A model generated the notes under the pieces. It was not told where the DNA came from. It was given only the letters and a program-made list of their open reading frames with translations, and did not search any database. This document shows, in pieces, positions 4,016 through 63,159 of a stretch of 64,000 nt of DNA; positions within the stretch are counted from its first letter, which is position 1; the number at the start of each line of letters is the position of its first letter. The stretch lies in NCBI GenBank assembly GCA_025354385.1, contig JANXMZ010000044.1, positions 1,069 to 65,068 of the forward strand, written 5' to 3'. The stretch comes from Bacteroidota bacterium (lineage in GTDB: Bacteria; Bacteroidota; Bacteroidia; NS11-12g; UBA955). The translations under genes and the position numbers were made by a program.

Positions 4016-4490
4016 CAATAATTTCTGGGGTATACCAATATATGCCTTCAATTTTCGATTCAAGCACTTTCCCATTCTTGTCGTATAGGTAAGTAGTTGG
4101 GTATTTTTTTACGCCAAGGTCGGGTTTTAAATGTGTAGAAGAATGATAAAAATTTAAATTAGATTGAAATTTATCTTTGAATCGAATCATCAAATCTGTT
4201 GGTTCATCGCTAATCATTAACACTTCTAATTGGTTGCCAAATTTTTCTTTCAGTTTCAACAGTTCTGGCTGCTCTTTCACACAATCGCTGCACCATGTTT
4301 GAAAATAGGAGATGATAACGACTTTATTTTTCAAAGCTTTTTTTTCGAGTTTAATGCCCCCTAAATCAGTCAATTCAGTTTTCTTAAAAACATCGCCCAA
4401 TGGATTTTCCTTTTTCATTTTTTTAACAATAAAACCGGTAATTATAAATGCAAGAATAAGCGATACAATAATATTTATTTTAAGTTTCAC
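3987..4490 (-). CDS. TlpA-like thiol:disulfide oxidoreductase (thioredoxin fold, membrane-anchored)
   Basis: N-terminal TM helix, WCSDC active-site motif, 167 aa. Its 3' end overlaps fmt convergently by 29 nt. Confidence 0.7.
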   Translation of the reverse strand: MKLKINIIVSLILAFIITGFIVKKMKKENPLGDVFKKTELTDLGGIKLEKKALKNKVVIISYFQTWCSDCVKEQPELLKLKEKFGNQLEVLMISDEPTDLMIRFKDKFQSNLNFYHSSTHLKPDLGVKKYPTTYLYDKNGKVLESKIEGIYWYTPEIIAMIEQALAH

Positions 4491-5597: not shown

Positions 5598-7475
5598 TTA
5601 ATCTGCAAAAAATTTATTTTCAATCAAACTATTAATATAGATTTGATACTTGGCCTTTAGTTCTCTCTCAAGTTTTATTTGCAATTGTTTTTCAGCTTCT
5701 GTCATTATATACCTGGCATTTTTAATTGGCACATCTTTGGCTTGAACATGAAAATTATATTTATTATTGGGCATAATTTCTAAGCAGTAAGGGTACTGCA
5801 TGGTTTGTAAAATACCAACAGAATTATTAATAGTAGTGGCTGGTAAGGTATCTAACAAATGATGGCCAAAGCCAAATATTTTATTATTACAACCCGCAAA
5901 AGAGAGCAGGGTTGGCATTATATCACAATGTGAAACAGTCGCTGTGTCTATTTTACCTTGTTTAAAATATTTAGGAGAATATATTAGTAAGGGTATCTCA
6001 TATCTGCCACTAGGGCCATAAAAATAAGCATCTGTGCTATGAGAAGGATGATCGGCAGTAATGATAAAGATGGTATTGTTGAACCAAGTTTCCTTTTTGG
6101 CTTTTGCGAAAAATTGTGATAAAGCATAGTCAGTATATTCAACAGATTTGTGTATTGGCAAGGGGCCTCCTTTAAATGTTTGTTGGTAGGCTGTTGGAAT
6201 TTTATAAGGGTCGTGTGAGGTTAATGTAAACACTGTGCTGAAAAATGGTGTCTTGCGATGGCCCAACTGTTCTTCGAAATATTGAAGATAGGGTTCATCC
6301 CAAATACCCCAACTTCCATCATAATCACTTACTTTACTCGGATATTCATTTAATCCTACATAATCTATAGGACCATTAATTTTTAGGTAATTATCAAAGC
6401 CCATGGAACCATTATCTGCACCATAATAAAATGAACAATCGTACCCACGTTTATTCAAATAGTAATGAATGCCATGCAAAGTATTGTTCTGAAAATTACT
6501 GTTAATGAATGGTACCTCTAGTAAAGAAGGTAAAGATGTAAAAATTGCGGGAATGCTTTCCATGGAGGTTGTGCCACAACTGTAGGCATTGGTAAAAGAA
6601 ATACAATGAGGAGCCAAACTATCTAAAAAAGTGGTAAACCGCGGCTTTTTATTCAAAAATCCACAATAGTCTCTACCAAAACTTTCGAGAATAATCAGAA
6701 CAATATTAGGTTTCTCTTTGGGCTTAAAAGAAGGTGTAATGGTATGCACCGGATTATAAATTTTTATGACTTCCTCATCACTGAAATAGGTGATTTTTGA
6801 GAGCACCATGGTGTTATAAGAGGTTAATAATTGAGTAGGGGAGTTGATAGTGGCAGATACCCATTGGGCATCTACATAACGGGCGGCATCAAAACTTCTG
6901 ATGGGTTTTTTATAAAAACCACCTCTAGCACCCAAAAAAAGAAATCCAAGTGCAAGTATTGTTATGAGTCCAAAATAAAGTGAAGGATTAAATAGTTGTT
7001 TTTGTTTATGTTTAGGGTAAAAATATAAAATTATGAATATAAAAATGAGAAATATCATCAACATCCACCAATAGTTGATTAAGTATTTACCAATAGAGTT
7101 TGCTGGGTCGGCAACCATTGTAAAAAGTTCAATGCCACTTCTTCGGGTTTTTATTTGGTAAAACTCGGTGTCTATACAATTCATTAATAGTATAAAACCC
7201 AGGCCTACAACATAAGTAGTTTTAACTATCGTTTGAAAATAGCGGTGATTGGTAAATTTAAAAGGTAGCAGGCTCAATATATGAAACAAACTAAGGGCAT
7301 AAACCATGGCTTGAAAATCAAATAAAAGGCCAGTAAAAAAAACCAGTGGTAGGTCAGCAATTGGTGCATTTTTGAAATAATCGAACAGATAAATGATGAA
7401 AAAGGCTCTGCTTAATGATAAAATGAGCAAAGCAAAGAGGCATCTCTTTAACCATATTTTTAAATAATTGAACAA
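5598..7475 (-). CDS. LTA synthase-family membrane sulfatase/phosphoglycerol transferase
   Basis: 625 aa. The N-terminus is multi-TM and the C-terminus is an extracytoplasmic alkaline-phosphatase/sulfatase-like domain (CGTTS, DNGS motifs). Confidence 0.65.
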   Translation of the reverse strand: MFNYLKIWLKRCLFALLILSLSRAFFIIYLFDYFKNAPIADLPLVFFTGLLFDFQAMVYALSLFHILSLLPFKFTNHRYFQTIVKTTYVVGLGFILLMNCIDTEFYQIKTRRSGIELFTMVADPANSIGKYLINYWWMLMIFLIFIFIILYFYPKHKQKQLFNPSLYFGLITILALGFLFLGARGGFYKKPIRSFDAARYVDAQWVSATINSPTQLLTSYNTMVLSKITYFSDEEVIKIYNPVHTITPSFKPKEKPNIVLIILESFGRDYCGFLNKKPRFTTFLDSLAPHCISFTNAYSCGTTSMESIPAIFTSLPSLLEVPFINSNFQNNTLHGIHYYLNKRGYDCSFYYGADNGSMGFDNYLKINGPIDYVGLNEYPSKVSDYDGSWGIWDEPYLQYFEEQLGHRKTPFFSTVFTLTSHDPYKIPTAYQQTFKGGPLPIHKSVEYTDYALSQFFAKAKKETWFNNTIFIITADHPSHSTDAYFYGPSGRYEIPLLIYSPKYFKQGKIDTATVSHCDIMPTLLSFAGCNNKIFGFGHHLLDTLPATTINNSVGILQTMQYPYCLEIMPNNKYNFHVQAKDVPIKNARYIMTEAEKQLQIKLERELKAKYQIYINSLIENKFFAD

Positions 7476-7554
7476 TGTGTAGTCTTAATAGAAGGGCAAA
7501 AATGCACATCATAAGCCACATTATGAAAATAATTCGACTTTTTTTCAAACTATA

Positions 7555-7585
7555 TTTGCTAATATCAAAAAAAGTCCTACTTTTG
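7555..7585 (+). promoter_or_regulatory. Candidate Bacteroidota sigma-A promoter for the rpsL operon (-33 TTTG, 19-bp spacer, -7 TACTTTTG)
   Basis: TTTG at 7555-7558 and TAnnTTTG at 7578-7585, about 38 nt upstream of the rpsL ATG. Confidence 0.35.
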
Positions 7586-7623
7586 CAGTCCTTTTTACAA
7601 AAAAAGAAACTGTTTAATAAATT

Positions 7624-8043
7624 ATGCCAACCATCCAACAACTGGTAAGAAAGGGGCGACAAACCTTAAAATTAAAGAGCAAATCTCCTGCTCTTGATTC
7701 TTGTCCGCAAAGGCGCGGTGTTTGCACTCGTGTATACACTACCACCCCTAAGAAACCTAATTCAGCAATGCGTAAAGTAGCGCGTGTACGTTTAACCAAC
7801 GGTAAAGAAATTAATGCTTACATCCCAGGCGAAGGTCACAACCTTCAAGAGCACTCAATTGTATTGGTGCGTGGTGGTAGGGTCAAAGATTTACCAGGTG
7901 TTCGTTATCACATTGTACGCGGTGCTCTAGATACTGCGGGTGTGGAAGGTAGAAACCAAAGAAGAAGCAAATACGGTACCAAAAAACCAAAGGCAAAGGT
8001 AGCAGGCGCTCCGGATCCTAAGGCTAAAGGGAAAAAGAAATAA
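7624..8043 (+). CDS. rpsL: 30S ribosomal protein S12
   Basis: [12 protein letters not shown]...[11 protein letters not shown]. It has a basic C-terminal extension. Confidence 0.95.
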
Positions 8044-49337: not shown

Positions 49338-52001
49338 TTATTCTACTGTGATTAATTGAGAATATAAGCCATTAACCAGCACAAGATACAAACCAGGTCG
49401 CGCATTTATTAATTCCGCTTCCATATTTAACCGTCCTAAACCGGTATCCATGTTCCAAATACTTTTGCCATTCAAGTCAAATATTTGCATTTGCTCAATG
49501 CCATTAGAAAACGTCACTGTAAAACAACCCTTGTTAGGATTAGGATATACATTAAGTGAATTTGGTTTTGACTGAAAAGTAGTTTGAAAAGATGAATTTT
49601 TAGGTTCGGTAATAAAATGCCAAGCGCTAGAATCAATGCCATTAAAAGCGGTATTCATAGAGTCTGTAATTAAGTCGGGCTTTAGCCAAACAGATATGCG
49701 TTTATTGTGACCAAAATCGCTGTCAATATCGAAGGTTATATTACTTCCAGTTATTGTAGTTCTTGGTCCATTCAATTCAATAGAATCTTTGAATACATTG
49801 TTCTCGAATACCAATAGGCTTCCTTTTTTACCCAGTGAAATGTTGCGGTCGAAATCTATGCTTAAGCTACTATTTACCAAAATGTTTTTGGCGTTGTTGG
49901 CTGGTGTTAATTTAATGGCTGTTGGCAAACTAATGGTTTTAAAATACCAATCACCAAATACTACAGGATTAATAGCAATGCCATTCTCGTTGATCAAACA
50001 AGCATCTAACTCTATTACTATCGTCGCATTGTATGCAAAATTAGAGGAAGGATGTATGGTGATAATATTTCCACTGATGCCAACATTGCTATCCGTTACA
50101 GAAAATTTCTCTTTGAATAAACTGTTCTCCCAAATGGTAATTTGTCCGCTACCCGCTTTGATGTTTTCAGAAAATTCAAGTTGTGGTGAAAAATTAACCG
50201 CCACATTTTTACTGAGAGTAACTGGAATATAAGTGGTAATTTTAGGTTGAGAAACAGAGGTGGAAAAATACCAAAGTGACGAGTCTTGAACTTTACTTAA
50301 ATTATCTGATGAATCTCTGAAACCTTGGGCAAATATTTTAACCGCTATCCTTGAATTGATGTTGAAGGACTGGTGCTGAATAGTAACACTGTCATTGTGA
50401 ATTTTAACATTTACGCTAGGAATTAAAATGGTTTGGAACAGGGCATTGTTTTGGTAAATTTCTATCTTGCCAGATTTGGCTATAACAGCTTCATCAAAAA
50501 TAATTTTAAGTGGGTTGACTAGATTGACTGATACATCATTTTTTGCTGGTACCAGTGTTTTTATCTTTGGAGGATTTGTTTCGTAGGTACACGAATAAAT
50601 GTAAGAATTCTTTTCAATGGTGCCGTATGAAGTAAGGTTTTTATTCTTAAACGCTGCGTAGGTGTTGGGGTAAAAAACACAACGGAAAACGGAGTTGTTA
50701 TTTGGAGCATCTCCATCCTTTTGTCTGTCCGCTCCATTAGAGGGGTTTTTGTATTCCCAAACAGTCTTTTTATTAGCGTTTATTTCAAAAAAACGACCCT
50801 GAACACCACTGCAAATTAAAGTGTTACCATTCGGTAACCTTTGGGTACCTGAAATAATTTGTGAGTAAAAACGGGTTGGAATAGAATCCTTATAAATCCA
50901 ACTTTGTTTTGAAGGTCCAAAGGGAAGCGTGGTATTATAAGAACCATTTGGATAAATTGGCGTTGAAATGATGTCTATAGAAGAGTATGCAGTATCTCGC
51001 TCCCACCCATTGTTAAATAAAATTATACTGCCAGAGTCTTTAAATCCACCAGGAATCCAAGTGGCATTGTGTTGTCTAAATAGCTTTCTGTCTTGAGGAG
51101 TTCCTTGGTTGTAAGCTTGAGGATTGCCCCAACGGTATAAAAAATCGCCTCCTTTTCCATATTTACCACCACTATGAGATTTGGCTTGGGCCTTTGAAGT
51201 GCCGTGGTCTATCACCCATATTTCTGAAATATTATGACAACTCATTACTATTTGATCCAAGCTCGGATTATAGTCGATACCATTCATGTGAATCCAATCG
51301 TGGGTCTTTAAATTAAGTGCGTAATTAATATTCAATAAACCAGGGTTTAAACTGACATTGCCAAAATTAGGTTTAGTAGAATCTTGGTCTTGCACTATAT
51401 GATCAAATAAATTCCATTGCCATACAATATCCGCGCTATCTTTACCTCTAGGTTTCAATTCTATTAATCGTTCGCCCCATAAGTCATTTTGACCATTGCC
51501 AAAGTTCACCGCATTTCTGCCCAAGGCCATAGCGCTTGTTTTTGAAATTGAATGCCAAGTCATTACCATAACATTGCCATTAGGCATTGGATGTATATCG
51601 TGGTGTTGACAAAGTGAATCTGTGAAAATTACATAACTCCAAACTACTTTTCCATCCCAATCTAATTCTTCTATAACACCACCTCTTCCACCAGCACCTC
51701 CAAAGGTAGTGTCGGAATAAGTCCCAGTTTTTAATAAATGTCCATTGGCTAATAAATAGACAGATAAGCCAGGTGTATATTGGCTATACCATGTATGAAC
51801 CTTCTGCCCACATTTATTAATTAGGAAAGTGGTATCTGAACCTAAAGGTGTAAATAAAACATATCCGTCTTCCATCCCTCCACTTAAGTGTTTGGTAAGA
51901 CCAACAGTTTTCTGTTGAGCAAATACTTCATTGCTAAAGATGCTTAAAAATATTAAAAGAATGAAGATGTTTAATATAGGAAGATTCTTTGCGAAGCTCA
52001 T
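49338..52001 (-). CDS. Arylsulfotransferase (ASST)-like beta-propeller protein with Ig-like repeats and T9SS type A sorting domain
   Basis: 887 aa. Signal peptide, motifs HHDIHPMPNGN and DWIHMNGIDYN, and C-terminal VYPNPNKG...GLYLV. Confidence 0.65.
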   Translation of the reverse strand: MSFAKNLPILNIFILLIFLSIFSNEVFAQQKTVGLTKHLSGGMEDGYVLFTPLGSDTTFLINKCGQKVHTWYSQYTPGLSVYLLANGHLLKTGTYSDTTFGGAGGRGGVIEELDWDGKVVWSYVIFTDSLCQHHDIHPMPNGNVMVMTWHSISKTSAMALGRNAVNFGNGQNDLWGERLIELKPRGKDSADIVWQWNLFDHIVQDQDSTKPNFGNVSLNPGLLNINYALNLKTHDWIHMNGIDYNPSLDQIVMSCHNISEIWVIDHGTSKAQAKSHSGGKYGKGGDFLYRWGNPQAYNQGTPQDRKLFRQHNATWIPGGFKDSGSIILFNNGWERDTAYSSIDIISTPIYPNGSYNTTLPFGPSKQSWIYKDSIPTRFYSQIISGTQRLPNGNTLICSGVQGRFFEINANKKTVWEYKNPSNGADRQKDGDAPNNNSVFRCVFYPNTYAAFKNKNLTSYGTIEKNSYIYSCTYETNPPKIKTLVPAKNDVSVNLVNPLKIIFDEAVIAKSGKIEIYQNNALFQTILIPSVNVKIHNDSVTIQHQSFNINSRIAVKIFAQGFRDSSDNLSKVQDSSLWYFSTSVSQPKITTYIPVTLSKNVAVNFSPQLEFSENIKAGSGQITIWENSLFKEKFSVTDSNVGISGNIITIHPSSNFAYNATIVIELDACLINENGIAINPVVFGDWYFKTISLPTAIKLTPANNAKNILVNSSLSIDFDRNISLGKKGSLLVFENNVFKDSIELNGPRTTITGSNITFDIDSDFGHNKRISVWLKPDLITDSMNTAFNGIDSSAWHFITEPKNSSFQTTFQSKPNSLNVYPNPNKGCFTVTFSNGIEQMQIFDLNGKSIWNMDTGLGRLNMEAELINARPGLYLVLVNGLYSQLITVE

Positions 52002-52026: not shown

Positions 52027-54690
52027 CTATTCTAATAATAAATTAACAGCATTGTGGCCATTGACTAATAGTACATAATGTCCTTTTGCAAATTGATTTA
52101 ATTTTATCTGATATTGTTTCTCGTTTAAAACATCAAAACTAATTTCAATTTGTTTACCAGTGCCATCAAACAATTGCAAAGTTTCAATTTTCTCGGTGGA
52201 CATTAGAACAAATAAACCATTATTTGGATTTGGGTACACGGCAAAGTTCTTATTGGTGTTAAGGGCATTAACTCTGCTATTATTGTTTTTCAGCGTAGTA
52301 AAAGTCCAACTTGAGGAGTCGATGGCACTGCAATATGAGCCAAAGGTATCTACTAATAAATTAGCGTCTAATTCTATGGCCACTCTCGCACCTTCTAGCA
52401 AATCAGAGTTTAGATCGAAACTGATACTATTGCCAGAAATCATTGTGCGAGGACCATTTAAACTAATGGCATCCACAGGGAATCCATCTTCATAAACAAT
52501 TAGATTGCCATTATTGCCGATCTTAATTGGGCGATCGTATTCTATAATAAGGGTAGGATTTAAAACGACATCTATCAATTTATTGGAAGGCGTTAGTTGA
52601 ACGATTTTTGGTGTAGATCGGGTTGTAAATATCCAAGCACCTTTTGTGATAGGGGTATTGTAGACACCGATGGAATTCTTAAAGCTAGCGTCCAGTTCAA
52701 TAGCAATGGAGGCATCCAACGCAAATGGTGTTGATGGTGTCACTGTAATAATTTTACCATTTATAATAATATTGTTGCTAGTAATAGGAATACTTTCTTT
52801 CAATACGTTGTTTTCATAAATTCTCAAACCTCCGGTACTTCCTTTGAACACACTGTCCCTGAAAAATAGTTTTAGTAATCGGGTAGCTTCAATATCAGCG
52901 GAAAGGTGTTTTGGCATCACTGAATCCAGATTCAGGCTAGGTACGACTGTGTAAAAATGCCATGCACTTGAATCAATTACTTTACTAAGATTGTTAGATG
53001 AATCTCTGAAGCCGCTAGCAGGCACCAAAATAGAAATTCTAGAATTAATGGCAAATGCATTTTTCTGCTTCAGGGTTATTAAATTATTGTTTACAACAAC
53101 GCTTGGGCTATCTATTGGCAAAGTTTCTAGGAGTATATTGTTCTGAAATATTTGAATAAGGCCCTTTTTCTTTAGAACAGTTTCATCAAAAGTAAATGAT
53201 ATAGTTGGTTTTGCAACTACAGAAGTTGCGTTGTTGGCAGGACTTAATGCAACCAATTTAGGGGGAACATTTTCGTAGTTACAAGAATAGACATAAGAAC
53301 TTTTTTCAACAGTGCCATAAGGAGACAAATTTCTGTTTTTAAAACCTGGAAAAGTATTAGGATAAAAGGTGCAACGGAAAACATTGTTGTTTCTAGGAAA
53401 ATCACCATCGGTTTGAATATTAATATTATTAATAGGCATGCGGTATTCCCACACAATTTTTTTCTGCGATGTTACTTCAAAAAAGCGACCTTGTATACCA
53501 CTGCAAATAAGTGTATTGCCATTGGCTAATCTTTGACAGCCAGAAATAATTTGTGAAAAGAAATTAGTGGGTACAGAATCCTTGTATTGCCAAGTCAAAG
53601 TATTTGGTAAATAGGGTAAATTAGGATTGTATTTGTTCCCTGCTAAAAGTGGTGTTTTAATCACATCTATGGTAGAGTAAGAAGTATCTCTGCCCCAACC
53701 ATTATTGAATAACATAATGCAGCCTGAATCTTTTAATCCATTAGGAATCCAATGAGCATTGTGCTGACGAAATAGTTTGCGCTTTAACGGACCACCTTGG
53801 TCATACGCTTCTGGGTTACCCCAACGGTACAAAAGATCGCCACCTTTATTGGCATTTCCACCGGAATGAGTTTTGGCCTGGGCTGTAGATGTACTGTGAT
53901 CGACAATCCAAATTTCGCTTAAATTATGACAGCTAATAACAATCTGGTCCAAATTTGCATTGTAATCAATTCCATTGGCGTGTATCCAATCATAAGTTTG
54001 AAGGTCATGTGCATAATTAATATTCACAAGTTGTGGATTGGAACTCACCTGTCCATAGGTAGGTAAAGTATTATTCTTATTTTGAATAACGTGATCGAAT
54101 AAATCCCATTGCCATACAATTTCAGCGCTGTCAATACCTATGGGCTTAAGTTCTATTAGACGTTCGCCCCACAGTTGATCCGAAGAGAAGTAGGCAGAGT
54201 CTCTGCCTAGTGCTATTGCCTTGGCTTTTGAGATAGCATGCCAAGTTAAAACCAAAATATTTCCATTTGGCATAGGTTTAATATCGTGGTGCTGACAAAG
54301 AGAATCATTGAATATTTTATAACTCCAAACCAAATTATTATCCCAATCAAATTCTTCTATTAATCCACCTCTACCACCCGCTAATTTAAAGGAGGTGTCA
54401 GTATATGTTTCGGCTCTTAATAGGTGTCCATTCGGTTTAATATACATTGCCAAACCTGGGCTGTAAGCACTGGCCCATTGATGAACTTTTTTGCCACACC
54501 TGTCTAGCAAATAAGTGGTATCAACTTTTATAGGACTAAATAAGACATAACCATTTTCCTGGGTGCCTTTAAGGTGCTTTAATAAACCAACTGTTTTGGA
54601 TTGAGAGAATGAGTTAAACGTTAGCGAGATAGAGAGAATGAGTAATAATGTTAATTTCATAAAAGGATTCAGATAGAAATTTAGATTCAT
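52027..54690 (-). CDS. ASST-like T9SS cargo, tandem paralogue of the previous gene
   Basis: Also 887 aa, with the same architecture and motifs (HHDIKPMPNGN, DWIHANGIDYN) and a T9SS type A C-terminal domain. Confidence 0.65.
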   Translation of the reverse strand: MNLNFYLNPFMKLTLLLILSISLTFNSFSQSKTVGLLKHLKGTQENGYVLFSPIKVDTTYLLDRCGKKVHQWASAYSPGLAMYIKPNGHLLRAETYTDTSFKLAGGRGGLIEEFDWDNNLVWSYKIFNDSLCQHHDIKPMPNGNILVLTWHAISKAKAIALGRDSAYFSSDQLWGERLIELKPIGIDSAEIVWQWDLFDHVIQNKNNTLPTYGQVSSNPQLVNINYAHDLQTYDWIHANGIDYNANLDQIVISCHNLSEIWIVDHSTSTAQAKTHSGGNANKGGDLLYRWGNPEAYDQGGPLKRKLFRQHNAHWIPNGLKDSGCIMLFNNGWGRDTSYSTIDVIKTPLLAGNKYNPNLPYLPNTLTWQYKDSVPTNFFSQIISGCQRLANGNTLICSGIQGRFFEVTSQKKIVWEYRMPINNINIQTDGDFPRNNNVFRCTFYPNTFPGFKNRNLSPYGTVEKSSYVYSCNYENVPPKLVALSPANNATSVVAKPTISFTFDETVLKKKGLIQIFQNNILLETLPIDSPSVVVNNNLITLKQKNAFAINSRISILVPASGFRDSSNNLSKVIDSSAWHFYTVVPSLNLDSVMPKHLSADIEATRLLKLFFRDSVFKGSTGGLRIYENNVLKESIPITSNNIIINGKIITVTPSTPFALDASIAIELDASFKNSIGVYNTPITKGAWIFTTRSTPKIVQLTPSNKLIDVVLNPTLIIEYDRPIKIGNNGNLIVYEDGFPVDAISLNGPRTMISGNSISFDLNSDLLEGARVAIELDANLLVDTFGSYCSAIDSSSWTFTTLKNNNSRVNALNTNKNFAVYPNPNNGLFVLMSTEKIETLQLFDGTGKQIEISFDVLNEKQYQIKLNQFAKGHYVLLVNGHNAVNLLLE

Positions 54691-58650: not shown

Positions 58651-61236
58651 TTACCGCATTAATCTCACGCTGGTTTCATGGTGCTCCAAAACACCATTGT
58701 AAGGTGTAAGCGCAATTTTACAAATGTATACTCCATCAGGGCAAAGCTGCGACATATATGTTCCATCCCAACCTTGAGTTATATCATCCGATTCGAATAA
58801 TAACGCCCCCCATTGATTATATATTTGCATTTTGTAATAACTTATAAATAGGCTAGAGAAAGGGGTATAGGTATCATTGATCTTGTTTTCATCAGGTGAA
58901 AATGCATTGGGTAAGTAAAAGAAAAATTTATGGTAAGTTGTAATACTAAAAGAATCGCTGCAATTATCGGCCGTGGTGGCCCATAAAGTGAATTTATTTT
59001 TACCCGAATCAAGATAATTTAAACTTGGATTTTTTTCATAACTGGTTCTACCTTTTCCAAGGTCCCAATAAAATTTTACGGCATTGTCAGTCGAATAATT
59101 ATTGAACTGTACTTTTTTATTACCTCCGTTTAAGGAACTTACATCAGTAATGGTAAACACGGCTTTGGGTTTGTCTTTTACAATGATTGTTCTGTGTTTA
59201 GTAATAGAATCTATGCAACCATTTTGTGCCTTTACAATTAGTTTTACATTGTACTTCGCGGGTTCTTGATAATAATGATGTGGATTTTTTTCTGAGGAAT
59301 AATAACCATCTCCTAAATCCCACCAATAAAAAGAAATTTTGCCTTGCGCGAATATAGATTGATTGTTAAAAATGACACTGTCAGGAAAACAGGGGGAGTT
59401 GACGTCAAATGCTGCCACAGGACCTGGTTTTACAGTAAAGGATTTTTGAATACTATCACTGCAATTGTTTTGGGTAGTGACCTTTAGTTTAACATCGTAA
59501 GTGCCCGCATTGGCATATTGTTTCATTGCAAGAGTGTCTGATAAATGTGTGCCATCGCCAAAAGTCCAATCCGATTTTTTTCTCACGTCATCATCTATAA
59601 AACTTACATCTTTAAAATTAAATTGATTATTCTTGAGACAAAGAGATGTGTCGGAAAAACTAAAATTAGCAACAACATAAGGGTTATGAATTTGAATGGT
59701 ATCCGAACTGCTGCATGAATTGGTGTCTTTTACTTTTAAAATATAAATGCCTTTCTTATGTGCGTAAATTGTTTTAGCGGTACTTTTATTGCTCCACAAG
59801 TATTCAGCATAATTTTCAGCAGTCGATAATTGGAGATTGAAGGCGTTGCAAAAACTCGTATCTCTCCCTATGTAGGGTTTGATATTCATGATATCAACCT
59901 TGACATAAGCGAACGAAACAACTTTTTTGAAGTAATAAAATAACCACACTTTGTAAGCCCCGGGTTTTTTATAAATATGCCCCACATTGGTAATCTGCGT
60001 TGAACTGTTCAATGCCCCAGAGGAAGGGTCCCCAAAATACCATTTTACAGAATCTAAATCGTTGGTATTAGAAAGCGTAAAAGTAGTGGTATCATTCAAA
60101 CAATTGTGTTTTACGGAAATTATTTTTTTGTTGAAAATGGAAGTATTAAAGTTGGGTAAACCCAAAATGCAATTTTTGCCACCAAGGTAAACAGCATTTC
60201 TTTTCAAACGCGACAATGCTCCGAGAGAATCTGGAGCCTCTATAGATTGAAGATAGTTACTATTGCTAACAGCAATATAAATTTTTCCGTTGGGTCCTAA
60301 TTGCAGTGCTCCTAAATCATTGCTAAAATTACTATCTAAAGTATATTTCGAGTTCAGAAATTGGCTTTTGGTGGTGGATTTGGCGGAATACTGATAAATC
60401 TTTTTTGTGTTAAATTCACTGATGTAAAGGTACTTGCTTTGAGCGGAAAACTCCAAGCCATAAGCCTTGTCATTATGGAAAGTCCATACATTGCTTACTC
60501 GGCCTGTGCCTGAATTGAAATCGGCAATTACAGATGAATCAAGTGTATAATTAACATAAGCTAATTTACGGCCATCTGGGGAGAACTTCATGTATCCTAA
60601 TGATGTGGAGTAGGTGCCATTGATTTTTACGCCTGTTTTACTTCTTACAGGTTTTGCTAAAACACCATAACCAGTAACTCTATAGGCAAATAGAGTATCT
60701 GTATCGAATTTGTGAACCATCAGCCAAAAATCAATACCATTGGCGTGTTTAACTGCGGTTATTTTTTCACAAGCCGGTGTTACTAGTTTTTTGTTTTTGT
60801 TCCAAAATACGACATCGCCTTTCCCATAATTATAACTCATATTAACTTCGGAATAGGTAATGCCCTCTTTGCCACCAATCTTATCGGAAGTGAAAATATA
60901 AAAACTATTAAAAGTAAAGGGTTTGGGTACTATTAAAACAGACTGTGTGCTGCTTGAATTTCCTTTTAAATTATTACCGTTGGGCATTAAATTGTGAGTG
61001 CTGTCCCAAACACTTACCCCATCTGTATAAAATAAAAGCCGGCCACTAGGCGTGCTGTAACTCGAACAGCCTTCAGAAGCATTCATTTTACCATTGATAA
61101 TGGCAACCGGATTACCTGATTTAAAATCAAGACCTGCATTTGCCCCAAAATACCAAACATTCGCTTCTTTTTGAGCGTTGCCTATCTGATATACAAACAA
61201 AATAGAAATGGAAATAAGTATAATTCTTCTTACCAC
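58651..61236 (-). CDS. Large PKD-repeat surface protein with gliding-motility-associated C-terminal domain (T9SS type B cargo)
   Basis: 861 aa with a signal peptide. The C-terminus LPNAFSPDENKINDTY...QIYNQWGALLF matches the type B CTD. Confidence 0.7.
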   Translation of the reverse strand: MVRRIILISISILFVYQIGNAQKEANVWYFGANAGLDFKSGNPVAIINGKMNASEGCSSYSTPSGRLLFYTDGVSVWDSTHNLMPNGNNLKGNSSSTQSVLIVPKPFTFNSFYIFTSDKIGGKEGITYSEVNMSYNYGKGDVVFWNKNKKLVTPACEKITAVKHANGIDFWLMVHKFDTDTLFAYRVTGYGVLAKPVRSKTGVKINGTYSTSLGYMKFSPDGRKLAYVNYTLDSSVIADFNSGTGRVSNVWTFHNDKAYGLEFSAQSKYLYISEFNTKKIYQYSAKSTTKSQFLNSKYTLDSNFSNDLGALQLGPNGKIYIAVSNSNYLQSIEAPDSLGALSRLKRNAVYLGGKNCILGLPNFNTSIFNKKIISVKHNCLNDTTTFTLSNTNDLDSVKWYFGDPSSGALNSSTQITNVGHIYKKPGAYKVWLFYYFKKVVSFAYVKVDIMNIKPYIGRDTSFCNAFNLQLSTAENYAEYLWSNKSTAKTIYAHKKGIYILKVKDTNSCSSSDTIQIHNPYVVANFSFSDTSLCLKNNQFNFKDVSFIDDDVRKKSDWTFGDGTHLSDTLAMKQYANAGTYDVKLKVTTQNNCSDSIQKSFTVKPGPVAAFDVNSPCFPDSVIFNNQSIFAQGKISFYWWDLGDGYYSSEKNPHHYYQEPAKYNVKLIVKAQNGCIDSITKHRTIIVKDKPKAVFTITDVSSLNGGNKKVQFNNYSTDNAVKFYWDLGKGRTSYEKNPSLNYLDSGKNKFTLWATTADNCSDSFSITTYHKFFFYLPNAFSPDENKINDTYTPFSSLFISYYKMQIYNQWGALLFESDDITQGWDGTYMSQLCPDGVYICKIALTPYNGVLEHHETSVRLMR

Positions 61237-61411: not shown

Positions 61412-62047
61412 TTACTTTAATTTTAGATTTAATTTCTTCAAAAGATCTAAGGCAAGTGGGTTCTCTTTAATAATTTCATCAAGTTGCTCTTTTTGCGTAT
61501 AGGCCTTGGTTTGTTGAATAACAGTATTATCTTCGGTAATCACTAGGGTAATTTCTCTATTTCCAAAATAATCTCTTAGGAATCTTTGCCACTCAATTTT
61601 TATGGGTTCAATCAAATTAATATTTGATTTATGCATCGCCACATTAACATCGTAAATATTGATTTTCAAATTGAACATTTTAACAAGTGCACTTGTAGAG
61701 GGTGGCACTGTTGCGGCAAAGGCATGGATAGCGGCTTTCAAATTTTGATCGTTGAATTCCACTTTTGTAGTTGGTTCTGATACTATATTCGAGTTTTGTA
61801 CGGAGGCTTCTTTAGTGGCTTCTATTTTCTCTAACACATTGGCATCCGACTGTTCAATAATTTCTGCAATGCCGATTTGAACAGCAGGAGGGGGTACAAC
61901 CAATTGTCCTTTTAATGGAATTTTAGGAAGGCTAAAATTTGAATCTGCTAATGGAATAATTTTGGCTACTATTGGTTCTTTAACAGCAGCAGTATTGTTC
62001 TTGTTTTGAGCAATCTTTTTTTCTATATACTCATCACTTTTTTTTTT
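61412..62047 (-). CDS. dnaX: DNA polymerase III tau-specific C-terminal region (domains IV-V), in the -1 frame relative to upstream dnaX
   Basis: The frame is open from the A10 run (62047-62038) down to the stop at 61412. A TGA lies immediately upstream of the A-run in this frame. Confidence 0.6.
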   Translation of the reverse strand, partial: KKKSDEYIEKKIAQNKNNTAAVKEPIVAKIIPLADSNFSLPKIPLKGQLVVPPPAVQIGIAEIIEQSDANVLEKIEATKEASVQNSNIVSEPTTKVEFNDQNLKAAIHAFAATVPPSTSALVKMFNLKINIYDVNVAMHKSNINLIEPIKIEWQRFLRDYFGNREITLVITEDNTVIQQTKAYTQKEQLDEIIKENPLALDLLKKLNLKLK

Positions 62048-63159
62048 AATTCATCCAGCGTAGTGGCTGAATTTAACATGTTTTTAATGTGACAGAGTTT
62101 CAAAAGGGCTAACTCCACATGCAAGCGTTGATTGCGACTATTCTTGTATTCGAGGTCGAATTGATTATTGATATTGAGTGCATTTAAAAGAAATGTGATA
62201 TTGGTGTTTTTACTTTGTTCGTTGTATTTTGCTTTGTGAATTTCGCCTACATCTAACAAATGCGCGGTAGCACTGTCTTTACACACCATCAAGTTTCTGA
62301 AATGTTCATTGAGGCCATTCAAGAACAATTGCCCATCAAACCCCCTTTCTAATATCTGGTCAAAATAATTGAGCACATCGCTCACATTTTGGTTCACAAT
62401 GGCATCCGTAACTTTAAAATAATAATCCTTATCTAATAAGTTCAGATTGTCTACCACTTTTTGATAAGTAATATCGCCATTGCAAAAACTTACCATCTGG
62501 TCGAACATGGAGAGGGCATCGCGCAAGCCTCCATCAGCTTTTTCTGCAATTACATGAAGGGCTTCGTCTTCGGCTTTAATATTCTCCTTAACAACAATAG
62601 TTTTCAAATGGGCCACCATGTCTTTTACTTGAATACGTTTGAAATTAAATATTTGACAACGCGATAAAATGGTAGGTAATACCTTGTGTTTTTCTGTGGT
62701 TGCTAATATGAAAATAGCGTATCTAGGAGGCTCTTCTAATGTTTTCAAGAACGCATTGAAAGCCGCAGAACTCAACATGTGTACCTCATCTATGATATAA
62801 ATTTTATAGGTACCAACTTGAGGTGGTATTCGCACCTGGTCGTTTAGGTTTCTTATATCATCTACAGAGTTATTACTGGCGGCATCGAGCTCAAAAATAT
62901 TAAAAGCATAATCCTGTTCTGGTCCGTCATTGTCTTTTTGATTAATAACCTTGGCAAGTATTCGAGCACAAGTGGTTTTGCCCACCCCCCTTGGACCAGT
63001 AAATAAAAATGCTTGCGCTAAATGGTTGCTATTAATTTCATTCAGTAGAGTATCAGTAATGTGTTTCTGCCCAACAACATCATCAAATATTGAAGGTCTA
63101 TATTTTCGGGCAGATACAATAAAATTTTCCACAGATATAACAACTAAAAAGGAATGCAA
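62023..63159 (-). CDS. dnaX: DNA polymerase III subunit gamma/tau, in-frame gamma-length product (domains I-III)
   Basis: ENFIVSARKYRP...GPRGVGKTTCARI (Walker A). The frame ends VMSI* four codons after the A10 run. The real start may be the GTG at 63132. Confidence 0.85.
   Translation of the reverse strand: MHSFLVVISVENFIVSARKYRPSIFDDVVGQKHITDTLLNEINSNHLAQAFLFTGPRGVGKTTCARILAKVINQKDNDGPEQDYAFNIFELDAASNNSVDDIRNLNDQVRIPPQVGTYKIYIIDEVHMLSSAAFNAFLKTLEEPPRYAIFILATTEKHKVLPTILSRCQIFNFKRIQVKDMVAHLKTIVVKENIKAEDEALHVIAEKADGGLRDALSMFDQMVSFCNGDITYQKVVDNLNLLDKDYYFKVTDAIVNQNVSDVLNYFDQILERGFDGQLFLNGLNEHFRNLMVCKDSATAHLLDVGEIHKAKYNEQSKNTNITFLLNALNINNQFDLEYKNSRNQRLHVELALLKLCHIKNMLNSATTLDELKKKVMSI

Follow-up and report, generated by a model that had tools for sequence, protein, structure and literature searches.

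An A10 run at the gamma/tau boundary of dnaX in an uncultured Bacteroidia lineage, with tau most likely made by transcriptional slippage

The window, a 64-kb stretch (64,000 nucleotides) of a Bacteroidia metagenome-assembled contig, appears to carry a working dnaX that contains a programmed recoding site, at which tau is most likely obtained through RNA-polymerase slippage on a run of ten A (a probability of roughly 0.6). Read normally, the DNA would give gamma, the clamp-loader subunit with domains I-III, ending in ...ELKKKVMSI, and the essential tau would need the sequence after the run to be read one base earlier. In the proposed mechanism, RNA polymerase would slip on the dT10:rA10 hybrid and leave mRNAs of mixed run length. 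Transcripts with A11 (also A8 and A14) would be translated into a 573-aa tau (...ELKKK-SDEYIE...), those with A10 would reach a stop after four more codons and give gamma, and those with A9 or A12 would meet a TGA directly after the run and give a gamma-length product. We infer both the timing of the frame change, during transcription, and the tau:gamma ratio. The arrangement itself, with gamma in frame and tau reached by a shift or an extra A, inverse to E. coli and similar to Thermus, had been proposed from the letters of the window (the original prediction), and is now supported by comparative data. Between a ribosomal and a transcriptional event, which the original prediction did not choose, the comparison points rather to transcription.

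The minus-strand sequence at the junction reads CTG GAT GAA TTA AAA AAA AAA GTG ATG AGT ATA TAG, confirming that dnaX stops four codons past the A10 run (Table 1). The gamma ORF matches the NCBIfam model TIGR02397 (dnaX_nterm) with an E-value of 1.3e-119 (399.6 bits vs. a cutoff of 250) and positions 1-373 of the 614 positions of NCBIfam PRK14971. Pfam searches identified DNA_pol3_delta2, DNAX_ATPase_lid and DNA_pol3_gamma3 in the ORF, the last of which ends at residue 360. The N-terminal AAA+ clamp-loader module of the DnaX family, with domains I-III, is present. The length of 378 aa given at first came from a mechanical ORF starting at TTG 63159. The homologues, whose N termini read MENF..., all begin MENFIVSARKYRP, which corresponds to GTG 63132, and thus gamma has 369 aa and the fused tau 573 aa.

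The run is located three codons past the end of domain III. The -1 frame, which reads ...SHYAG*IKKKSDEY... across the run, is closed just upstream by a TGA, as had been noticed, and the frame change is thus confined to the A10 run. Joining the tau part to the gamma part takes one additional A (or the loss of two) in the mRNA, or a -1 ribosomal shift. Both non-tau frames have near stops, after four codons in the 0 frame and at once in the +1 frame, and both are kept in relatives. The +1-frame stop is retained near the run in every clade relative, though the downstream sequence differs (AAG TGA, AAT TTC TGA, AAC TGA). An A run of at least 9 with near stops in the non-tau frames is the sequence arrangement of Thermus-type transcriptional slippage. 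The A10 run is the sole A/T run of at least 9 in the window, which contains 12 runs of 8. An order-0 model predicts about one 10-mer run per window, so that its mere existence carries no significance, whereas its position and conservation do. Such runs of at least 9 are nearly absent from 82 kb of clade loci, with 2 besides the dnaX site.

Table 1. Features of the recoded dnaX in the window.
Feature	Coordinates	Strand	Details
dnaX 0-frame ORF (gamma)	62023..63132	(-)	369 aa, AAA+ domains I-III; GTG 63132 to TAG 62025-62023
+1-frame TGA right after the run	62034..62036	(-)	AAG TGA
0-frame stop TAG	62023..62025	(-)	four codons (VMSI) downstream of the A10 run
A10 slippery run (T10 on the + strand)	62038..62047	(-)	TTA AAA AAA AAA G, codons 362-365
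TGA closing the -1 (tau) frame	62051..62053	(-)	two codons upstream of the run; GGA TGA ATT
Tau-specific coding region, -1 frame	61412..62038	(-)	208 codons + TAA (61414-61412); PRK14971 match, colinearity, substitution pattern
Predicted disordered tau linker	61769..62038	(-)	tau-specific residues 1 to ~90; AlphaFold2 pLDDT 37-55
Folded C-terminal domain of tau (predicted)	61424..61756	(-)	residues ~95-205; KH-like alpha/beta topology H-H-E-E-H-E-H-H

Past the run, 208 sense codons follow in the -1 frame before its stop (SDEYIEKKIAQN...KLNLKLK), close to the ~205 counted originally. The C-terminal third of PRK14971, the DnaX model for Bacteroidota (positions 466-613 of 614), is matched by this tau-specific ORF with an E-value of 5.5e-9; a Pfam search with the same ORF gave no match, the NCBIfam full-length model being the only one matched. 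The fused protein is colinear end to end with unsplit Bacteroidota tau, which share [DE][LIV]KKK at the junction, showing that the tau C-terminal region is homologous to and colinear with that of full-length tau. The AlphaFold2 model of the tau part, run on an alignment of trimmed database proteins, predicts a disordered linker followed by one KH-like folded domain. A linker and tau C-terminal domains had been anticipated, but the label of domains IV-V says too much, as two domains are not recognisable there. The linker contains a conserved LAD.NFxLPKIP motif in the alignment.

The first possible start codon (ATG, GTG or TTG) is distant from the run, with none for 45 codons in the window and none for 25-110 codons in relatives. 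Nevertheless, substitutions in the first 40 codons after the run fall almost all at third positions. Loci L081 and L095 differ after the run at 1, 0 and 20 first, second and third codon positions, respectively; 20 codon changes are synonymous and none is non-synonymous. Purifying selection ahead of any start codon indicates that the tau frame is translated from the run onward. Together with the colinearity and the PRK14971 match, it supports the fused tau, for which about 575 aa had been estimated. The same data bear on the reading in which a gamma-only subunit and a free C-terminal protein are translated from two separate genes, or in which the gene is a decaying pseudogene; both are highly improbable. 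Gene callers do annotate an independent ORF (88-186 aa) behind dnaX, recorded in some cases as Pfam DUF8439. However, the called starts differ in position between loci, the codons preceding the first possible start are under purifying selection and include the conserved motifs SDEY and LAD.NFxLPKIP, and the -1 frame of the window opens exactly at the run. Decay is excluded by conservation down to 66% identity.

The split is conserved throughout the clade. About 50 protein clusters from independent assemblies, at 66-100% identity, all have ~369 aa and the same ending (...KKKVMSI*), in which L[DE]E[LI]KKK is followed by 4-6 residues and the stop. Exactly ten A and the same split are found in all 14 distinct clade DNA sequences, although synonymous changes occur in the codons on either side, so the orthologue comparison proposed earlier shows both the split and the run conserved. 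The clade assemblies were from NCBI, ENA, JGI and Logan, and the closest relatives were taken from contigs encoding close homologues and not from the contig scan with the gamma protein. Six of the 14 sequences were found via the C-terminal protein, so the run played no part in their selection; scanning metagenomes with the C-terminal alignment yielded six loci. All 42 Lys codons at the run are AAA, vs. 75% elsewhere in the same genes, a comparison uncorrected for shared ancestry. The position and direction of the shift are conserved in the 14 clade sequences and in 21 species loci of other Bacteroidota families. In the window, the tau C-terminus is in the -1 ORF and the poly-A tract exactly at the ORF junction.

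This conservation leaves almost no room for a homopolymer-length error of sequencing or assembly, which would conceal an A11 run and an ordinary, unbroken tau gene in the actual genome, as considered in the original prediction. Homopolymers are error-prone, and A9 versions of A10 genes do occur in some assemblies (L099, L023 and the 365-aa cluster members P0137 and P0138). However, the same A10 and frame relation recurs across independent assemblies, in the ~50 protein clusters as well as the 14 DNA sequences, and isolate genomes of Flavobacterium and Chryseobacterium share the A10 split. Full-length (fused) DnaX homologues were found only at 51% identity or below; a collection of 5.8 billion proteins contains none above 51% and no assembled A11 variant. 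The rest of the 64-kb window has no homopolymer-broken gene. Phase variation of the DNA, in which replication slippage between A10 and A11 would give subpopulations with or without tau, is likewise very unlikely. Poly-A tracts are hypermutable, and the occasional A9 assemblies would fit, but essentially all assemblies have A10 as their consensus, with no A11 consensus above 51% identity. Moreover, tau is probably needed in every cell for coupling the polymerase to the clamp loader, as established in E. coli.

A more serious competitor to slippage is programmed -1 ribosomal frameshifting on A_AAA_AAA, as in E. coli dnaX but with the product roles swapped; we consider it possible but unlikely. 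The heptamer is in the correct phase (TT[A AAA AAA] AAA G), as is trivial for any A10. Indeed every phase of the run contains A_AAA_AAA, so that on formal grounds the ribosome could always shift by -1 here, again with KKK-S as the main junction peptide. A shorter run occurs in two variants, each known from a single contig, L097 (TTAATAAAAAAAG, A7) and L098 (GAAAAAAAAG, A8), which retain the in-phase heptamer and the split. Slippage on these runs would be expected to be weak, and they may be assembly errors or a sign of ribosomal frameshifting. Atkins et al. 2016 frame the reversed dnaX in terms of ribosomal frameshifting, with E. coli-like stimulators in Chlorobium phaeobacteroides (PMC5009743).

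Against ribosomal frameshifting, neither a 3' stem-loop nor a 5' Shine-Dalgarno (SD)-like element is conserved in the 14 sequences. Over the region from -60 to +90, RNAalifold found 0 conserved pairs. Folded by itself, the sequence of the window scores better than its shuffles (z = -3.3) and has a hairpin immediately 5' of the A10. This hairpin was rejected as a stimulator, since 53% of cells pair, equal to the shuffles, and it is unconserved. As read off the alignment, only 6 of the 14 sequences have an SD-like GAGG ahead of the run, the window not among them, and the preceding codons are variable (GAT, GAC, GAG or GAA, then GAA). Bacteroidota make little use of pairing between SD and anti-SD, making a 5' stimulator of the E. 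coli type less likely. Furthermore, the run length under selection is 10 and not 7, near stops are kept in both alternative frames of the unsplit relatives, and three loci (L010, L023 and L099) have tau in the +1 frame, out of reach for a -1 shift. These +1-frame loci, of which L099 belongs to the window's own clade, could be homopolymer miscalls. Transcriptional slippage is favoured by the lack of a conserved RNA structure or SD-like element flanking the run and, among the loci listed in the survey below, by a run length that is kept whichever frame holds tau. It is also favoured by the early stops of the listed unsplit genes in both other frames, as in Thermus (PMC1088944). RNA-polymerase slippage has been measured with E. 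coli and Thermus sequences, and slippage on 9-mers may be suppressed in AT-rich organisms (Baranov et al., PMC1088944).

The survey comprised 80 Bacteroidota species loci among the matches listed in the contig scan with the gamma protein, none above 66% identity. A run of A9-A12 is located at the gamma/tau boundary in 73 of these 80 listed loci, with A10 in 62. Tau is in the 0 frame in 50 of the 73 listed run-bearing loci, in the -1 frame in 21 and in the +1 frame in 2. In the 50 unsplit genes listed, stops come after a median of 1 codon past the run in the -1 frame (8 for random positions) and of 4 codons in the +1 frame (10 for random positions), unusually early in both. Cross-species P values are inflated, because the tests ignore shared ancestry. 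Split A10 dnaX also occurs in isolate genomes of Flavobacterium and Chryseobacterium. There are about even odds that the A10 tract is an ancestral RNA-polymerase slippage device of nearly all Bacteroidota dnaX, in which the tau frame has flipped repeatedly and near-neutrally while the run was kept at ten, and that the clade obtains its essential tau only via transcriptional infidelity, probably as a minority product. If so, replisome assembly would tolerate large shifts in the tau:gamma ratio. This phylum-wide picture and the toggling of frames were not found in the literature on reversed dnaX, though the concept behind the slippage-device reading was anticipated by Atkins et al. 2016 (PMC5009743).

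An essential subunit of the replisome here probably depends on non-standard decoding. Annotations should merge the 369-aa gamma/tau gene with the hypothetical ORF downstream (DUF8439 in some relatives) into one recoded dnaX; genomes of the window type seem tau-less because the two halves are annotated separately. Flavobacterium johnsoniae and Chryseobacterium are cultured and have the same architecture, making the mechanism and the tau:gamma ratio measurable.

The reversed two-ORF organisation of dnaX was already published in 2013; the window extends it to one more lineage without introducing a new principle. Antonov et al. 2013 (NAR 41:6514, PMC3711429; cited in PMC5009743) predicted it in Bacteroidetes, Chlorobi and Verrucomicrobia, with Flavobacterium johnsoniae, F. 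psychrophilum and Cytophaga hutchinsonii among the species. Their junctions have poly-A tracts of 7-10 A (A10 in 9 of 12 poly-A cases), and transcriptional realignment was proposed in a purely computational description (PMC3711429). The window resembles these cases in having gamma in the 0 frame, the tau C-terminus in the -1 ORF and poly-A at the junction, and its evidence is, likewise, computational; our literature search turned up no experiment on a reversed dnaX. It differs in belonging to another, uncultured Bacteroidia lineage, known from metagenome-assembled contigs, with clade flanks GA[AGTC] [TCA]TA A9 GTGATGA and a run starting at codon 362, compared with ~354 in Flavobacterium.

E. 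coli dnaX uses the heptamer A_AAA_AAG, depends on two stimulators, an SD-like element on the 5' side and a hairpin on the 3' side, and makes gamma by its -1 shift. Shared with the window are the gene, the boundary after domain III, a Lys-rich slippery site and two products with a common N terminus. In the window, however, the shift makes tau, the site is a 10-mer and not a heptamer, and the stimulators are absent or unconserved. The dnaX of Thermus thermophilus has an A9 run with tau templated in frame, on which slippage makes gamma (Larsen et al. 2000; PMC1088944, PMC5009743). This slippage gives mRNAs in all three phases and needs no stimulatory structure (PMC1088944, PMC5009743). Both systems have an A run at the gamma/tau boundary and close stops in the non-tau frames, whereas in the window the templated A10 specifies gamma, and tau would require slippage. 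The Thermus-like arrangement is that of most unsplit Bacteroidota dnaX (50 of the 80 loci listed). In mxiE of Shigella flexneri, the longer product likewise needs transcriptional slippage, there on a T run (PMC1088944). In both, two overlapping ORFs would be fused only in transcripts with an added non-templated nucleotide, giving a longer functional protein. The mxiE product is unrelated to DnaX and activates transcription; its gene has no essential role in replication and lacks conservation across a phylum.

The junction of dnaX on the minus strand of the window reads ...CTG GAT GAA TTA AAA AAA AAA GTG ATG AGT ATA TAG. This reading bears out the original prediction of a gene split at an A10 run, with the short product gamma in frame and the C-terminal part of full-length tau in the -1 frame (frames are counted relative to the gamma ORF). 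The -1 ORF has 208 sense codons, begins SDEYIEKKIAQN and ends KLNLKLK. Mechanical ORF calling places the start at TTG 63159 and yields the 378 aa originally predicted; the homologues all start with MENFIVSARKYRP, equivalent to GTG 63132 in the window, and gamma is thus revised to 369 aa and fused tau to 573 aa. No other A/T run of at least 9 occurs in the window, and such runs are nearly missing from the rest of the 82 kb of clade loci.

Features of the split dnaX in the window and A runs of loci with tau in the +1 frame
Locus	Feature	Position	Strand	Basis
Window	A run, 10 bases	62047-62038	minus	direct reading
Window	0-frame stop TAG	62025-62023	minus	direct reading
Window	TGA closing the -1 frame, two codons 5' of the run	62053-62051	minus	translation
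Window	TAA ending the -1 ORF	61414-61412	minus	translation
Window	+1-frame stop (AAG TGA), immediately 3' of the run	62036-62034	minus	direct reading
L010	A10, tau in +1 frame	~4062-4071
L023	A9, tau in +1 frame	~1513-1521
L099 (window's own clade)	A9, tau in +1 frame	2586-2594

The product of the gene directly downstream of dnaX (58651-61236, minus strand) is a PKD-repeat protein of 861 aa bearing a CHU_C type IX secretion signal. The closest relatives (L085 and L086) have the same neighbour, indicating conserved local synteny. Elsewhere in the window, two tandem minus-strand ORFs (49338-52001 and 52027-54690) of exactly 887 aa each are 53% identical; both carry an arylsulfotransferase-like domain, Big_5 Ig-like repeats and a T9SS Por_Secre_tail sorting domain, suggesting that a secreted enzyme was duplicated in tandem. 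An A8 on the plus strand (7335-7342) adjoins the minus-strand ORFs 5598-7475 and 7354-7662. A 102-aa ORF without Pfam match stops 12 nt from this run, which itself falls where a sulfatase/LtaS-like ORF in another frame has its start region; a wrongly called start, a small ORF with no relation to its neighbour or a further frameshift may explain this.

The upstream dnaX ORF clearly encodes the N-terminal module of DnaX (TIGR02397, E = 1.3e-119), with Pfam matches to DNA_pol3_delta2, the lid of the ATPase and domain III (to residue 360). The run begins in codon 362, and its Lys codons (363-365) directly follow domain III. The tau-specific downstream ORF has no Pfam match and matches the last quarter of PRK14971, the Bacteroidota full-length DnaX model (466-613 of 614, E = 5.5e-9). 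With one A added, the fused protein is colinear over its whole length with unsplit homologues, which share [DE][LIV]KKK at the junction. For the tau-specific part (208 residues), AlphaFold2 predicts ~90 disordered residues followed by a compact alpha/beta domain (95-205, pLDDT 80-89), which supports a linker plus one tau C-terminal domain; of the tau C-terminal domains originally predicted behind the linker, a second does not appear in the model. Foldseek gave no significant match, and the only match from a PDB profile search was weak (tau of Thermus aquaticus, 4iqj_M, E = 0.11). The folded domain is a likely counterpart of tau domain V. Precomputed Pfam assigns PF28557 (DUF8439) to small ORFs downstream of split dnaX in L087/L088 (4233-4688) and L089 (4194-4688), and this family seems to represent the tau C-terminus of split dnaX genes; a local Pfam search with the window's own tau ORF yielded no match, to DUF8439 or otherwise.

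A search of fused tau against 5.8 billion proteins, with NCBI, ENA, JGI and Logan assemblies represented among the matches, returned ~50 protein clusters at 66-100% identity. All are ~369 aa, cover only 64% of the query and close with L[DE]E[LI]KKK, 4-6 further residues and a stop codon; no match to full-length DnaX (562-638 aa) exceeds 51% identity. The window's exact protein is also found in NCBI and Logan, there on contigs of up to 75 kb. Structure of the gene was compared in 14 distinct clade DNA sequences (the window, L081, L083, L084, L087, L089, L090, L002 and L091-L096). L091-L096 were retrieved via the C-terminal protein, so the run played no part in choosing them. The run is exactly A10 in 14/14, and every sequence has a 0-frame stop 3-6 codons after it, a +1-frame TGA within 2 codons and a -1 ORF of 200-242 codons. 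The codons beside the run show synonymous variation (GAA/GAG/GAT/GAC; TTA/CTA/ATA); its three Lys codons are AAA throughout, compared with 75% AAA for Lys elsewhere in the same genes. The ~50 clusters and 14 DNA sequences from several assembly sources rule out a homopolymer sequencing error, the alternative raised originally.

Possible tau-frame start codons (ATG, GTG or TTG) first appear 45 codons past the run in the window and 25-110 codons past it in relatives. Pairwise comparisons within the clade showed that the first 40 tau-frame codons after the run evolve like coding sequence. Counted by codon position (1/2/3), L081 and L095 differ at 1/0/20 sites (20 synonymous and 0 non-synonymous codon changes), L081 and L094 at 4/2/18, and L084 and L091 at 3/6/16. 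Coding-type evolution upstream of any tau-frame start codon rules out both an independently initiated downstream gene and a dnaX pseudogene. Together with the colinearity of the fusion with unsplit tau, it upholds the predicted recoding at the run into a -1 tau frame, and programmed recoding of some kind is very probable (roughly 95%).

Among 80 Bacteroidota species loci from the matches listed in a genome-contig scan, an A9-A12 run lies at the gamma/tau boundary (codons ~345-387) in 73, of which 62 have precisely A10. Frame 0 encodes tau in 50, with A9-A11, mostly A10, the +1 frame in two (L010 and L023), and the -1 frame, as in the window, in 21. The last include Flavobacterium, Chryseobacterium, Myroides, Wenyingzhuangia, Chryseolinea, Marinoscillum, Roseivirga and Sunxiuqinia. 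In the 50 frame-0 loci, the -1 frame stops a median of 1 codon past the run (8 at random positions in the same genes) and the +1 frame a median of 4 (10 at random positions). In L024 and L071 the run is A12 and tau lies in the -1 frame; these two, the +1 loci and the shorter-run variants L097 and L098 may be either real or homopolymer miscalls. The boundary has no A run of at least 6 in L058, L067, L074 and L075, and only A6-A7 in L013, L047 and L066. In L001, the nearest unsplit relative, and split L002, A10 starts in the same codon 362 (TTA/ATA), and the junctions differ only in the phase of the downstream sequence; the length of the run is thus kept whatever the tau frame. There is an even chance that nearly all Bacteroidota dnaX genes have an A10 slippage site, the tau frame toggling between lineages. 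L002 also has a second A9 run (4259-4267) inside the tau linker (...SERKKKPEE...), ~170 nt 3' of its A10 site.

No conserved RNA structure was found beside the run (0 pairs across clade sequences). The window itself folds a hairpin immediately 5' of the run (z = -3.3); across relatives only 53% of its cells pair, no better than shuffles. An SD-like GAGG is present in 6/14 clade sequences and absent from the window. Tau could be made by -1 ribosomal frameshifting, since A_AAA_AAA is in phase within any A10 and the single-contig variants L097 (A7) and L098 (A8) are still split. However, RNA-polymerase slippage fits better, because the fixed element is a 10-mer rather than a heptamer, stimulators are missing, both non-tau frames have stops and +1 arrangements occasionally occur. 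From these sequence features, slippage is probably the main route to tau; the two mechanisms are not mutually exclusive.

The split dnaX is real, conserved and was correctly interpreted originally, and it is not new. Antonov et al. 2013 (PMC3711429), who reported only split genes, described 17 in 12 genera, nine with A10 (including Flavobacterium johnsoniae, F. psychrophilum, Cytophaga hutchinsonii, several Chlorobi and Coraliomargarita), aligned the sites to the A9 run of Thermus and suggested transcriptional realignment as the mechanism; Atkins et al. 2016 (PMC5009743) restate this result. Thus, the window is a further member of a class described computationally, likewise split and from a different, uncultured Bacteroidia lineage (a MAG). 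For annotation, the two dnaX ORFs are to be joined; scientifically, the gene is one more example and part of a phylum-wide picture of A10 and frame toggling. No experimental test of a reversed dnaX was found in the literature. In Thermus thermophilus, slippage makes gamma (PMC1088944), and its dnaX has the same arrangement as the 50 unsplit Bacteroidota loci, with stops near the run in both other frames.
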